Of a DNA stretch of 32,000 nt, positions 5,656-23,097 are shown piece by piece; position 1 is the first letter of the stretch, and each line of letters starts with the position of its first letter. Under the pieces are notes generated by a model that saw only the letters and a program-made list of their open reading frames with translations, did not search any database and was not told the DNA's origin. The stretch is from Candidatus Hadarchaeota archaeon. GTDB taxonomy: Archaea; Hadarchaeota; Hadarchaeia; Hadarchaeales; Hadarchaeaceae. The stretch is taken from assembly GCA_964514965.1 (NCBI GenBank), contig CAZETV010000002.1, positions 156,445 to 188,444 of the forward strand. The letters run 5' to 3'. Made by a program: the position numbers and the translations under genes.

Positions 5656-6513
5656 TTATCCCTCGTTGAGCGTGTTCAGCAGCGCGAGCGTTGCTACAAG
5701 CGCTTCCTCAGTTCGAACGGTGGCGGCCCCTTGGCTCAGGATCGTATTGATTACGACGCCAAAGAGTTTTCCAGCATCGACGCCTTGGCGTTTGCAGATT
5801 TCGAAGAGGCCCGCATAAGAGCCCCCGAAAGCCACCGTCACGCTATGAGGTTTGCTACTCTCTATCGCTTGCATTACCCCATATAAATTTTGCCCGTGTC
5901 GTGAAGTCCCTATAACATAATCTGCTTTCAGGACTTTTAAAGCATCTGCGAGGGTTTTCGCCTGCATAACTTCATAGCCCCAATATTCGCTGACTTCGCT
6001 CCGTGATACCCGCTCGATTGCGCGTTTGCCCTCACCTAAACTTTCGCCGAGTCTAACCGTTACCCGTTGACCAACACTGAGTTTTTCACTTGTAAGACCA
6101 CGCTCACGTATCCCAAGTTCAAGTAGGCTCCCATTTTTATCCACATCTATAACAACGGCTTCACGATAATTGCCGACGGCAGTTTTTTCACCTACAAGCG
6201 GGTGGGAGGGTATACGCAGCGGCGGTAGCAAACCAGCGTAGCGAAGCTCTCGTGAATGTGGAAATATGAGTTTGCGCAGATATTGTGGCGTTTCCATATA
6301 CTGCAAAAGTGTTGAAATAATTCTAGCCTCAAAGGCTTGATTTTTAACATGGGGATCATCATCATTATAGATGCAAACCTTATCAACGCGGAAAATCGCC
6401 AGCGCACGCCCGATTAAACCAATCTTGAATGTTTTCTGCCGAAGGTCAGGTGCATCAGCAAAAAGCGAAGAAGGCAGCAGCACGAAAAAAGATTTGGATT
6501 TTCTTGACATCAT
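5656..6513 (-). CDS. Putative SPOUT-class RNA methyltransferase (DUF171 / COG2106-like)
   Basis: 285-286 aa. The family assignment is from my memory of the conserved archaeal protein found immediately upstream of rpl3 (motifs include YWGY.V and a C-terminal knot-like region). The start is the GTG at 6516 or the ATG at 6513, abutting the RtcB stop codon. Confidence 0.7.
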   Translation of the reverse strand: MMSRKSKSFFVLLPSSLFADAPDLRQKTFKIGLIGRALAIFRVDKVCIYNDDDPHVKNQAFEARIISTLLQYMETPQYLRKLIFPHSRELRYAGLLPPLRIPSHPLVGEKTAVGNYREAVVIDVDKNGSLLELGIRERGLTSEKLSVGQRVTVRLGESLGEGKRAIERVSRSEVSEYWGYEVMQAKTLADALKVLKADYVIGTSRHGQNLYGVMQAIESSKPHSVTVAFGGSYAGLFEICKRQGVDAGKLFGVVINTILSQGAATVRTEEALVATLALLNTLNEG

Positions 6514-6515
6514 CA

Positions 6516-7970
6516 CTAACCCTTTGCAACTCCCACAGGTTTCAAGCGTGCAACCATTCGAGCGATTCCCGCCTTATGGGACACCTCACAGACCTTATGG
6601 ATATCTTTATAACTCTTTGGCGCCTCCTCCGCAATTATCGAAATCTTAGCCGCTCGCACTATGATCCCCTTCGACTCGAGCTCTTTCTTCACATCTTCAC
6701 CCCAAAACTGCTTGAGTGCTGCTGTGCGGCTCATGTGGCGCCCTGCGCCGTGGGCGGTTGATGCAAACGTTTCCTGCATCGCCCGCTCGGTGCCCACGAG
6801 CACATAGGATGCAGTCCCCATGTCCCCCGGAATAAGCACTGGTTGCCCAACGCTACGATACAGTTCGGGCACACTGGGATGCCCGGGCGGAAACGCTCTT
6901 GTAGCACCTTTTCGATGTACACAAACTTTCTTGCGTCCCCCGTCAATCTGGTGTTCCTCAAATTTAGCGATGTTATGCGCGAGTCCATAAACGAGATGGA
7001 GACCCAATTTTTCTGCGTCCTGTCCAAAGACTTGCTCGAACGAGTCCCTCACCCAATGCGTGATCATTTGTCTATTTGTGAAACCATAATTTGCAGCGCA
7101 AGCCATCGCTGCAAGATATGACTGCCCCTCAGGCGAATTTATCGGTACATTGACGAGCTCTCTATCCGGGAGAGTTATGCCATATTTTCTAACGGTGCGT
7201 TCCATAGTTCTTAAATAGTCCGAGCAGACCTGATGACCCAGACCTCTCGACCCGGTGTGAATCGTGACCGTTACTTGCCCTTCATGGGTTATCCCAAAAG
7301 AGGAAGCAACTTCTTGGTCAAAAATTTTATCAACCACTTGAACCTCCAAGAAATGATTTCCACTTCCAAGGCTGCCAAGCTGGGGGAGACCGCGCTCTTT
7401 TGCACGCTGACTTACTCTACTCGCATCAGCACCAGCAAGACATCCTCCCTCTTCAAGCCTTTCCATGTCCTCTTTCCAGCCAAACCCATTCTCGACAGCC
7501 CACTTTACTCCGTTCTCAAGAACTTCATCAAGCTGGGAATAGGTAAGCTTGACCTTCCCCCTGCTGCCCAGCCCTGATGGCACGTTCCGGAAGAACGCAT
7601 CTACGAGTTCGCGGAGTTTCGGCTCGATGTCTTTTTTGTCAAAATTAGTCAGCAACAACCGCACTCCACAGTTGATGTCATATCCCACACCGCCTGGGCT
7701 AACGACGCCCGTCTCAGCGTCGGTAGCCGCAACCCCACCTATCGGAAATCCGTATCCTTGATGACCATCTGGGAGCGTTATCGAGTATTTGTAAATGCCC
7801 TGCAGAAAAGATACATTCGTGGCTTGCTCCAACGTTAGATCCCTGCACATCTCATTTAACAGCTCGGAGTCAGCGTATATCCTAACTGGAACTCGCATCC
7901 CGGACTTGCAGTCCTTAGGAATCTCCCACCGCACATCGTCGATTTTTTTAATCTTATCCATCCACACCAT
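6516..7970 (-). CDS. rtcB: RNA-splicing ligase RtcB (3'-phosphate/5'-OH ligase)
   Basis: 484-aa ORF with RtcB signatures: GYDINCGVR, GSGNHF.E, HTGSRG.G and a C-terminal HGAGR. Confidence 0.97.
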   Translation of the reverse strand: MVWMDKIKKIDDVRWEIPKDCKSGMRVPVRIYADSELLNEMCRDLTLEQATNVSFLQGIYKYSITLPDGHQGYGFPIGGVAATDAETGVVSPGGVGYDINCGVRLLLTNFDKKDIEPKLRELVDAFFRNVPSGLGSRGKVKLTYSQLDEVLENGVKWAVENGFGWKEDMERLEEGGCLAGADASRVSQRAKERGLPQLGSLGSGNHFLEVQVVDKIFDQEVASSFGITHEGQVTVTIHTGSRGLGHQVCSDYLRTMERTVRKYGITLPDRELVNVPINSPEGQSYLAAMACAANYGFTNRQMITHWVRDSFEQVFGQDAEKLGLHLVYGLAHNIAKFEEHQIDGGRKKVCVHRKGATRAFPPGHPSVPELYRSVGQPVLIPGDMGTASYVLVGTERAMQETFASTAHGAGRHMSRTAALKQFWGEDVKKELESKGIIVRAAKISIIAEEAPKSYKDIHKVCEVSHKAGIARMVARLKPVGVAKG

Positions 7971-21546: not shown

Positions 21547-21621
21547 CGCCCTGGCCGGGATTTGAACCCGAGGCGCAGGCTCGACAGGCCTGCATGCTAG
21601 ACCGGTCTACACCACCAGGGC
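21547..21621 (-). tRNA. tRNA-Asp (anticodon GUC)
   Basis: Hand-folded 75-nt cloverleaf. Acceptor GCCCUGG/CCAGGGC, anticodon arm CAGGC-CUGUCGA-GCCUG, T arm UCGGG-UUCAAAU-CCCGG, discriminator G. Confidence 0.9.
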
Positions 21622-21661
21622 CCAAACAAAAATGATTCGCGCCAATAATAAGTTTATCCAA

Positions 21662-21789
21662 GTGGACTGGCAGCGTCTCGGAGTTCCCCTTGGCTCTCGC
21701 ACAAGAGTACAGTCCGAATCGCTGGCAGGCTTAACTTCCGGGGTCTGACGAGACCGGGTGTTGCCCCACCGCTATGACCGCCAGTCCAG
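21662..21789 (-). rRNA. rrf: 5S ribosomal RNA (not linked to 16S/23S in this window)
   Basis: The minus strand reads ...GGCGGTCATAGCGGTGGGGCAACACCCGGTCTCGTCAGACCCCGGAAGTTAAGCCTGCCAGCG..., the conserved archaeal 5S core. Terminal helix I is TGGACTGGC/GCCAGTCCA. The ends are accurate to within a few nt. Confidence 0.9.
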
Positions 21790-21805
21790 TTAATCTTTGA
21801 GTTTG

Positions 21806-21816
21806 TAATTAAAAAG
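21806..21816 (-). promoter_or_regulatory. Candidate TATA box for 5S rRNA
   Basis: The minus strand reads CTTTTTAATTA, centred about 22-25 nt upstream of the inferred 5S 5' end, in the 37-nt spacer after tRNA-Tyr. Confidence 0.35.
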
Positions 21817-21826
21817 CTTGTTTAAG

Positions 21827-21954
21827 TGGTCCCGCGGGCCGGATTTTCAGCAGATTTGCCGCATTTGAACCGGCAACATGTCGGTTTCGGCTTGGGTCTT
21901 TGGCCCGCCTCTCGGCGAACAGCCGACCACTCTACCAAACTGAGTTACCGCGGG
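21827..21954 (-). tRNA. tRNA-Tyr (anticodon GUA), 128-nt gene with intervening sequences in the anticodon loop (31 nt) and the T-loop (20 nt); CCA encoded
   Basis: Removing 21886-21918 and 21844-21863 yields a 77-nt sequence: CCCGCGG-UA-ACUC-AGUUUGGUA-GAGU-G-GUCGG-CUGUAGA-CCGAC-AUGUU-GCCGG-UUCAAAU-CCGGC-CCGCGGG-A-CCA. It has the C1-G72 pair and A73 that are identity elements of archaeal tRNA-Tyr. It is nearly colinear with the M. jannaschii tRNA-Tyr sequence as I remember it. Confidence 0.85.
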
Positions 21955-22050
21955 GCCAAGTTAAAATTGGGATTTATGAACTCTTAAGGTTTCACCCAAG
22001 AAACTCGTGCAACCTGCGGATAGCACTCAACTTTTCCTTCCGATCAATCT

Positions 22051-23097
22051 TTACCTCTTGGACAGCACTTTGGAGGATTTCGATTGTTTTTTGATAGGTT
22101 CTCCTATCCACCGGATACGGAATTCCATCTTTTCCCCGTGTGCGAAAGAAAAGCGCGCCGGGTCTTCCCATGAAGGTGATTTACCGTAAATCAAGTCAGA
22201 AACAAGGGCAAGGGCCCGCACAGCTTTTGGTCCGATCCCTCCGATGGCGACCAGCTCCTCGTAGCTTTCGGGTTGGAACTCATAGGCTTTGAGAAGCGCC
22301 GTCATCGTCCGATCGGTGAACTCTGAAATAGTGTGCTGAGTTGGCATGATGAGGGTACGCACTTTGGGCGAGTGCATTAGGTATTCATCGAGCGATCGTT
22401 GTTCTGCTTCTCGAACATAACTCCCCAACCGCTTTGGATTGTCACGCACGAAGTCTAAACTAGATTTTCTCGCTTCATCGCTCTCGCGCGCAGTCATGTC
22501 GAGAACCACTTTCTCCCGGCGATCACCTACAATACCCGAGTGCGGCTCTTCAACGAAACTTTGGACACCCTCGGAAAGCCAGTGGTAGCGCCTAGCCAAC
22601 TGCTCATGCATTCCCTGCTGCACCACGGCCCAATCCCCATCTTCGCTGAGCACGAAAACATGATGATATAGCTGGTATCCGTCTTGCACACAAGCGTTGT
22701 CGACCTTTGCTGTCATCTTGCTCGCGTACTTGAGAAATTCAATTTTTCTGGAGGAGAGAGAAAAAACATCCGCGAGTTTTTGAATTTCGTTCGGCGTTCG
22801 CTTTGAAACCTTACCTTTCCCCCCGCAGACCGCGATGCCGAACTCTGTTTTTATCGCCTCCTTCAACGCACCACACACGGTAGTGGTCAATCCCGATGAA
22901 TGCCAGTCAAACCCGAGCGTGCATCCCAAAGCTTGAAAAAAGAAAGGATCGCTTATCCTTTTGAGTAATTCCTTTCTCCCGTATTCGTGCACGATTATCT
23001 CTGCTATTGCTCCACCCAAAAGCTTCATCCGACTGAACAACCAAGGTGGACATCTACCACCGTGCAAAGGCAGCTCAGCAACACCAACTCGTTTCAT
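22051..23097 (-). CDS. DUF763-family conserved hypothetical protein, with an apparent frameshift near the 3' end
   Basis: 348-aa ORF with the N-terminus ELPLHGGRCPPWLFSRM, typical of DUF763/COG1415 from memory. The reading frame appears to shift at a G4 run (22134-22137), and the other frame stays open to 21992. Confidence 0.75.
   Translation of the reverse strand: MKRVGVAELPLHGGRCPPWLFSRMKLLGGAIAEIIVHEYGRKELLKRISDPFFFQALGCTLGFDWHSSGLTTTVCGALKEAIKTEFGIAVCGGKGKVSKRTPNEIQKLADVFSLSSRKIEFLKYASKMTAKVDNACVQDGYQLYHHVFVLSEDGDWAVVQQGMHEQLARRYHWLSEGVQSFVEEPHSGIVGDRREKVVLDMTARESDEARKSSLDFVRDNPKRLGSYVREAEQRSLDEYLMHSPKVRTLIMPTQHTISEFTDRTMTALLKAYEFQPESYEELVAIGGIGPKAVRALALVSDLIYGKSPSWEDPARFSFAHGEKMEFRIRWIGEPIKKQSKSSKVLSKR

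Follow-up and report, generated by a model that had tools for sequence, protein, structure and literature searches.

Pre-tRNAs with several introns have reportedly been described from the Thermoproteales, among them Pyrobaculum and Thermofilum, by Sugahara et al. in 2007 and 2008 and by Tocchini-Valentini et al. in 2009 (PNAS 106:20246). In what order do such introns leave? Passages of three papers (PMC3978253, PMC3728597, PMC8450103) present it as already published for the Thermoproteales that archaeal tRNA introns which are nested or lie close together are spliced sequentially, and tRNAscan-SE 2.0 already implements the sequential removal of closely spaced introns defined by motifs of the bulge-helix-bulge (BHB) type. 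Reviews put the published maximum at three introns per tRNA gene (PMC4033280, PMC8450103). For the Hadesarchaea, passages of PMC5829648 report an alpha4 splicing endonuclease carrying an L3 loop, together with raised disruption of tRNA genes. Here we consider a tRNA-Tyr(GUA) gene of a Candidatus Hadarchaeota archaeon, from a phylum placed in the kingdom Methanobacteriati. It lies in a stretch of 32,000 nucleotides (nt), called the window below and numbered from its first letter (assembly GCA_964514965.1, contig CAZETV010000002.1, positions 156,445 to 188,444). The locus is very probably a functional gene with three independent BHB introns, of which the one at position 35/36 (I1) would be spliced before the one at 37/38 (I2); the third, I3, lies in the T-loop. 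The parts of the gene are as follows.

21827-21954, minus strand: complete tRNA-Tyr(GUA) gene, 128 nt including the encoded CCA; predicted mature tRNA of 77 nt
21919-21954, minus strand: 5' exon, tRNA positions 1-35, ending GUCGG CUGU; it stops within the anticodon, after G34-U35
21900-21918, minus strand: intron I1, 19 nt, UCGCCGAGAGGCGGGCCAA, position 35/36, strict motif; an exact block present or absent among orthologs
21895-21928, minus strand: footprint of the I1 splicing motif, from the motif scan
21898-21899, minus strand: micro-exon A36-G37, 2 nt, between I1 and I2, placed by the I1-less orthologs, which read CUGU-AG-ACCC..., and by the I2 variants
21886-21897, minus strand: intron I2, 12 nt, ACCCAAGCCGAA, canonical position 37/38, relaxed motif of the bulge-helix-loop (BHL) type
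21864-21885, minus strand: middle exon, positions 38-59, A CCGAC AUGUU GCCGG UUCAAA, from the sequence and from ARAGORN after intron deletion
21844-21863, minus strand: intron I3, 20 nt, UGCGGCAAAUCUGCUGAAAA, T-loop position 59/60, strict motif
21827-21843, minus strand: 3' exon, comprising U60, the 3' strands of T-stem and acceptor stem, A73 and the encoded CCA

Read on the minus strand from 21954 to 21827, the 5' half of the gene is CCCGCGG-UA-ACUC-AGUUUGGUA-GAGU-G-GUCGG-CUGU-(34 nt) and the 3' half continues CCGAC-AUGUU-GCCGG-UUCAAA-(20 nt)-U-CCGGC-CCGCGGG-A-CCA. The standard finders miss it because of the three inserts: ARAGORN calls no tRNA-Tyr at the locus, its calls in the window being tRNA-Ser, tRNA-Lys and tRNA-Asp, and Rfam at the gathering threshold reports those three tRNAs and a 5S rRNA. 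ARAGORN fails even in intron mode, on account of I3 in the T-loop. A permissive Rfam scan of the whole window gives a partial, sub-threshold tRNA match at the locus (22.3 bits), with a 34-nt insertion after CUGU, and no further tRNA genes. Three of these 34 nt are needed to complete the anticodon loop, so that 31 nt are surplus, the number that an earlier, sequence-only reading of the stretch had counted after U35. When 21918-21900, 21897-21886 and 21863-21844 are deleted in silico, ARAGORN accepts the 77-nt product as tRNA-Tyr(GUA), with C1-G72, A73 and the encoded CCA. Judged by ARAGORN, or by Rfam at the gathering threshold, the genome would be scored as lacking tRNA-Tyr; recognizing the three introns mends the annotation.

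Are the 31 surplus nt one intron or two? The evidence comes from orthologous tRNA-Tyr loci of Hadarchaeota genomes and metagenomes, which carry L-numbers below. Metagenomes were scanned with the pattern TAGAGTGGTCGGCTGT-N(0-30)-AGACC, which could also match genes without either or both anticodon-loop introns. The scan returned 70 stretches, 4 of them unrelated; together with the genome loci and the window this makes 75 tRNA-Tyr genes, 72 complete and 49 distinct. The 5' exon segment TAGAGTGGTCGGCTGT is identical in 75/75, but it also served as search pattern. After in-silico intron removal, every one of the 72 complete orthologs is called tRNA-Tyr(GUA). I2, 12-17 nt long, is present in 75/75 genes, and thus in all 72 complete ones, and I1 in 28 of those 72, or about 40%; a gene with I1 and without I2, or an intronless gene, was found 0 times among the 72, though the pattern would match both. 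Two pairings are exact: L140 is L084 plus the 19-nt block, and L144 is L085, L096, L122, L134 and L146 plus the 19-nt block. The gene of the window is L001/L125 plus the 19-nt block and one substitution. Such pairs mark I1 as a discrete unit, and the insertion is therefore almost certainly made up of two introns, as the sequence-only reading had proposed. I1 occurs in both T-stem haplotypes (12/28 GCCGG genes, 16/43 GGGAG genes), which points to repeated precise loss, or to transfer.

One might still imagine a single 31-nt intron, removed in one step to leave the loop CUGUAAA. ARAGORN does accept one once the T-loop insert is deleted, and the CUGUAAA product also folds as tRNA-Tyr. No BHB motif can be drawn for that cut, however, as had already been noticed from the sequence: the central helix is 2/4 paired, and there is neither an outer nor an inner helix. 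In some relatives, moreover, precisely the first 19 nt are missing and the last 12 present, and I2 variants ending CU↓A or CC↓A (arrows mark cuts) yield G37 only. The comparative data thus contradict a single intron, and we consider it next to inconceivable. For two introns, the I2 variants that end in CU↓A, CC↓A, UC↓A or AC↓A require that A36-G37 be exon, which supports CUGUAGA, and not CUGUAAA, as the predicted mature anticodon loop; this too agrees with the earlier proposal.

I1 and I3 are the two strong matches in the tRNA-Tyr gene when it is scanned for a 4-bp helix with a 3-nt bulge on either side and, beyond the bulges, an outer and an inner helix; this full arrangement is the strict motif, written hBHBh'. 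The I1 motif reads GGUC GGCU GU↓U CGCC GAGA GGCG GGCC AA↓A GACC. Its 4-bp outer helix pairs GGUC (21928-21925) with GACC (21898-21895), its 4/4 central helix GGCU (21924-21921) with GGCC (21905-21902), the bulges are GU↓U (21920-21918) and AA↓A (21901-21899), and a GAGA loop caps the 4-bp inner helix CGCC/GGCG. Every element that the sequence-only reading had listed for these first 19 nt was found at the coordinates it had given. The outer helix draws on G37 and the first three bases of I2, and after removal of I2 the same GACC is given by G37-A38-C39-C40. Eleven I1 sequence variants occur in the orthologs; the motif is kept in all 11, with GNRA loops in most. I1 accordingly has what is expected of a BHB tRNA intron: its removal restores the cloverleaf, its geometry is hBHBh', and it is a discrete unit that is present or absent. 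A search for I1-like sequence outside tRNA-Tyr, as a test of intron transposition, found none in the window or in any ortholog or genome locus retrieved. We note that in a MAFFT alignment GGTCGGCTGT, where the 5' exon of I1-less genes ends, fell opposite the 3' end of I1 (GGCGGGCCAA), with 6/10 bases identical (21900-21909 versus 21919-21928). The similarity could be a target-site-like duplication at insertion, or merely the near-palindromic GGCC/GGCU central helix.

I3 was absent from the earlier reading. Its strict motif is GCCGG UUCA AA↓U GCGG CAAAU CUGC UGAA AA↓U CCGGC, and it is independent of both I1 and I2. The orthologs have 13 variants of I3, with compensatory changes in the inner helix; L002 and L004 do not have the intron. 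How much weight can such motifs bear? A strict scan of the window on both strands (a central helix of 4 bp, flanked by outer and inner helices no shorter than 4 bp, with G-U pairs admitted) finds about 30 BHB-like motifs per 64 kb, the window counted on both strands, versus 18-37 in shuffled sequences, or about 7e-6 per cut-site pair. Because the frequencies in window and shuffles are equal, the motif alone is weak evidence, and the significance is carried by the exact placement and by the orthologs. BHB motifs elsewhere in the window were dismissed as evidence, being as common as in shuffled sequence and having no tRNA frame.

I2 does not pass the strict hBHBh' test and qualifies only as a relaxed motif of the BHL or HBh' type. 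After I1 removal the motif is GUCGG CUGU AG↓A (CCCAA) GCCG AA↓A CCGAC: the anticodon stem is the outer helix, the central helix CUGU/GCCG is 3/4 paired with a U33.C mismatch, the 3' bulge is AA↓A, and there is no inner helix. Deleting the 19 nt of I1 thus reproduced the imperfect helix, mismatch and bulge previously drawn for the 12 nt at 37/38. Placing I2 at 21896-21885 is equivalent to placing it at 21897-21886, because A flanks both ends. The features of a relaxed motif are the 3-nt 3' bulge beside the anticodon stem and the helix between 32-35 and the intron, whose register is backed by relatives. Twenty I2 variants have, just ahead of their last two bases, the tetranucleotide GCCG, GCUG, GUAG, GUGG, GCGG, AUAG, AUGG or ACAG; C32 has G as its partner throughout, the partner of G34 is C or U, that of U35 is G or A, and that of U33 is free. 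Several of the variants form a perfect 4-bp central helix. In a gap-free alignment of 13 distinct rows, 96.6% of the cells pair in this register, versus 18-49% in slid registers. We also observe that I2 begins ACCC(A/G) in all 75 orthologs, the I1-less genes included, so repeating the downstream A38-C39-C40 (window 21895-21897 and 21883-21885, minus strand), and this repeat furnishes the outer helix of I1. In genes without I1 the repeat may have been kept as a relic of an ancestral I1, or because I2's own 5' site needs it.

Which of the two anticodon-loop introns goes first? A fixed order, I1 before I2, fits all the computations and is, in our judgment, probable. The modeled dependence is one-way: I1 would be independent of I2, and I2 dependent on I1. 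The I1 motif is strict with or without I2, and after a hypothetical removal of I2 it is at least as good, with an outer helix of 5 bp. The I2 motif is 1/4 paired in the precursor, where its 5' cut site sits 21 nt from the helix C32-U35; once I1 is gone, it reaches 3/4 and has an outer helix of 5 bp. Because both use G27-U33, the two motifs cannot coexist. When the other arms of the full precursor are held in the cloverleaf, the I1 conformer has -46.2 and the I2-like conformer -39.5 kcal/mol, a difference of about 6.7 in favor of I1, and the isolated motifs have free energies at 37 C of -15.6 (I1), -12.1 (I3) and -4.1 kcal/mol (I2). The order had been argued earlier on the ground that the 5' strand of the I2 central helix exists only after I1 removal. 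That argument does not hold: C32-U35 (21922-21919) lies upstream of I1 and is already in the primary transcript. It is the junction U35-A36 that arises when I1 is removed, and through it the 5' splice site G37↓A comes to lie beside the helix C32-U35.

The orthologs also bear on the intermediates. The junction of CUGU with AGACCCAAGCCGAA, which has I1 removed and I2 kept, is encoded natively in the I1-less relatives; the junction GGGCCAAAG-ACCGAC, which has I2 removed and I1 kept, is encoded by 0/75 genes. The anticodon arm of the I1-spliced intermediate is that of the primary transcript in I1-less relatives, which argues that the intermediate would be a usable substrate. Natural I1-plus and I1-minus versions of otherwise identical genes make a clean comparative argument for a competent intermediate.

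Several points weigh against the proposed splicing and its order. The unconstrained minimum free energy (MFE) fold of the precursor (-50.8 kcal/mol) matches neither splicing conformer, and the unconstrained MFE folds of precursor and intermediates favor an alternative CGGC/GCCG pairing over the splicing motifs, so that MFE by itself is of no help. The enzyme would have to select or stabilize the motifs. Variation in the I2 helix is one-sided, its other strand being the invariant anticodon loop; double-sided covariation is impossible, and a shuffle control is uninformative for this helix because the exon strand never varies. The I2 central helix, with its U.C mismatch and no inner helix, demands an enzyme tolerant of relaxed motifs. 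Finally, the unspliced precursor can already form the helix-bulge-helix half-motif that holds the 3' cut site of I2, so that this cut could precede the removal of I1.

Might the two introns then leave in no fixed order, with I2 or its 3' site cut in the unspliced precursor and both intermediates occurring? The I1 motif is equally good after I2 removal, and from I1's side an I2-first route is not forbidden. The full precursor can adopt, in the conformer of -39.5 kcal/mol, the 3' half of the I2 motif with its anticodon stem, AA↓A bulge and CUGU/GCCG, and relaxed half-motifs (hBH, HBh') are cut by some archaeal enzymes (PMC4090602; passages of PMC5829648). On the other hand, the distance of 21 nt from the central helix puts the 5' cut site of I2 outside any bulge or small loop in the precursor, the geometry scoring 1/4, and the I1 conformer, which is the more stable, has that site paired within the outer helix. 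The enzyme, moreover, recognizes two bulges 4 bp apart (Xue et al. 2006, as cited in a passage of PMC4090602). We regard the absence of a fixed order as unlikely, and favor the removal of I1 before I2.

That the locus is spliced at all we infer from its sequence, and the pathway that we propose is as follows. In the primary transcript, G26-U33 would find partners in the 3' part of I1, in G37 and in the ACC at the start of I2, forming a strict motif, and the T-arm would form a second strict motif around I3. I1 would be cut out by the endonuclease at GU↓U and AA↓A and I3 at two AA↓U sites, and RtcB would ligate the exons. Removal of I1 would join U35 to A36 and release G27-G31, so that the anticodon stem GUCGG/CCGAC can form. 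C32-U35 would then pair imperfectly with the GCCG of I2, and the cuts AG↓A and AA↓A would be made in bulge-helix-loop geometry. This second round of cleavage and ligation would give the loop CUGUAGA. A splicing endonuclease gene is not among the genes of the window; an RtcB gene is, and is listed here with the genes that adjoin it or the tRNA-Tyr gene.

6516-7970, minus strand: RtcB, the RNA ligase of the splicing machinery, which unites the exon halves once the endonuclease has cut (Pfam PF01139, E = 6.6e-179)
5656-6516: putative RNA methyltransferase (PF02598), adjoining RtcB
21547-21621, minus strand: intronless tRNA-Asp(GUC) gene (ARAGORN and Rfam), downstream of the 5S rRNA gene
21665-21785, minus strand: 5S rRNA gene (Rfam RF00001, 86.8 bits), 41 nt downstream of tRNA-Tyr on the same strand
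22051-23097, minus strand: DUF763 open reading frame, 348 aa

The RtcB gene sits in a neighborhood of ribosomal-protein and RNA-polymerase genes. The tRNA-Tyr, 5S rRNA and tRNA-Asp genes stand head to tail within 408 nt of one strand (21547-21954, minus strand) and are probably one transcription unit; tRNA-Tyr and 5S rRNA are possibly co-transcribed. An A/T-rich, TATA-like element, TTCATAAAT, lies at 21972-21980, about 20-25 nt upstream of the tRNA-Tyr 5' end. Most homologs of the DUF763 protein have 368-369 aa and align over only 93% of the window's reading frame, and the closest relatives (L001, L002, L016) share its C-terminus; a C-terminal change specific to the lineage thus seems likelier than a sequencing frameshift.

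Could the locus be a decaying pseudogene or an assembly artifact, its inserts mere junk? Standard tRNA finders do fail on the gene, and the source is evidently a metagenome-assembled genome (MAG). The exons, however, are intact and have all the tRNA-Tyr identity features, and dozens of independent contigs have inserts at these same three sites, with variation that preserves the motifs. The gene order DUF763 - tRNA-Tyr - 5S is likewise conserved in relatives. This tRNA-Tyr gene comes after DUF763 in 8 genome loci; against the nearest locus, 6 kb of the window align collinearly with 89% identity, and the closest relatives of the DUF763 protein (76-91% identity) come from MAGs labeled Hadarchaeota, Hadesarchaea or Hadarchaeales. 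Decay or artifact is very improbable, and a functional gene remains the reading that we adopt.

What range of architectures do the relatives display? Some bear extra introns at 9/10 and in the variable region. Seven orthologs (L003, L082, L095, L100, L113, L128 and L147) have four introns, and all reduce to a clean tRNA-Tyr in ARAGORN. So does L083 (metagenome contig Ga0315310_10019024, about 1530-1712), with five, at 9/10, 35/36, 37/38, in the variable region and at 59/60. The variable-region insert, seen in L016, L036, L083, L087, L092 and others, is 15-40 nt long, follows CCGAC-A and has a long internal hairpin (e.g., GGAUCG...CGAUCC). No convincing BHB register was found for this insert in the relatives; 43/44 scores 3/4 in some and 2/4 in others. 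We suggest, quite tentatively, that the Hadarchaeota tRNA-Tyr genes may be a natural allelic series with one to five BHB introns, whose five sites (9/10, 35/36, 37/38, about 43/44 and 59/60) are fixed, including a 2-nt micro-exon. L083 would perhaps be the first five-intron tRNA gene, and the 35/36 intron would be turning over between near-identical genes in a non-TACK lineage with a reportedly simple alpha4 endonuclease. If that is true, the series is a ready system for asking what enforces the order of splicing, and by what routes tRNA introns are gained or precisely lost. Loss of I1 through reverse transcription of the I1-spliced intermediate would then explain why I1-minus/I2-plus genes are common and I1-plus/I2-minus genes never seen.

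How does the locus compare with the systems already described? It offers no new mechanism, and is a new example of an established concept in a non-TACK lineage outside the Thermoproteales. As in sequentially spliced multi-intron pre-tRNAs, there are at least two introns, and the motif of the last cannot form until another is gone. The likeness to the Thermoproteales pre-tRNAs, as passages of PMC3978253, PMC3728597 and PMC8450103 describe them, is that the last intron's motif forms only once the others have been removed, and splicing is hence sequential. The lineage differs, being Hadarchaeota and not TACK, and so does the layout, I1 and I2 being adjacent rather than nested, parted by the 2-nt exon A36-G37, so that only their motifs overlap. 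In contrast to the Thermoproteales, furthermore, the predicted dependence is one-way, since the I1 motif borrows the first three bases of I2 and these can be restored by A38-C40.

The nuclear tRNAs of the red alga Cyanidioschyzon merolae (Soma et al. 2013, PMC3728597) provide a second comparison. There, strict motifs of low free energy in the D and T arms are removed first, and the weak 37/38 intron is always last. The ranking of I1, I3 and I2 by motif free energy given above is the ranking that predicts the order in C. merolae. Each C. merolae motif can fold on its own, whereas nucleotides 27-33 are used by both the I1 and the I2 motif, and either one shuts out the other. I2 itself resembles the canonical 37/38 introns of the relaxed BHL or HBh' type (Marck and Grosjean 2003) in its position, its use of the anticodon stem as outer helix, the pairing of 32-35 with the 3' part of the intron and the 3-nt 3' bulge. 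It departs from them in being very short (12 nt), in having no inner helix and, for the window variant, in the mismatch at U33.

Closest in lineage are the Hadesarchaea YNP_N21 of Kaneta et al. (2018, PMC5829648), from the same phylum, for which passages of that paper report an enrichment of disrupted and multi-intron tRNA genes. Those passages give genome-wide proportions; the present case is the architecture of one tRNA-Tyr gene, with its intron polymorphism. Intron-rich tRNA genes are also reported for the Asgard Atabeyarchaeia and Freyarchaeia (Valentin-Alvarado et al. 2024, PMC11291895), where a supplementary table, in the part of that source drawn on here, has columns for up to four introns. 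The Hadarchaeota are another phylum, and the analysis of ordered splicing, set against that part of the source, belongs to the present locus. The tRNA-Tyr gene of the window thus extends heavily disrupted, stepwise-spliced tRNA genes from the Thermoproteales and the Asgard archaea to the Hadarchaeota.

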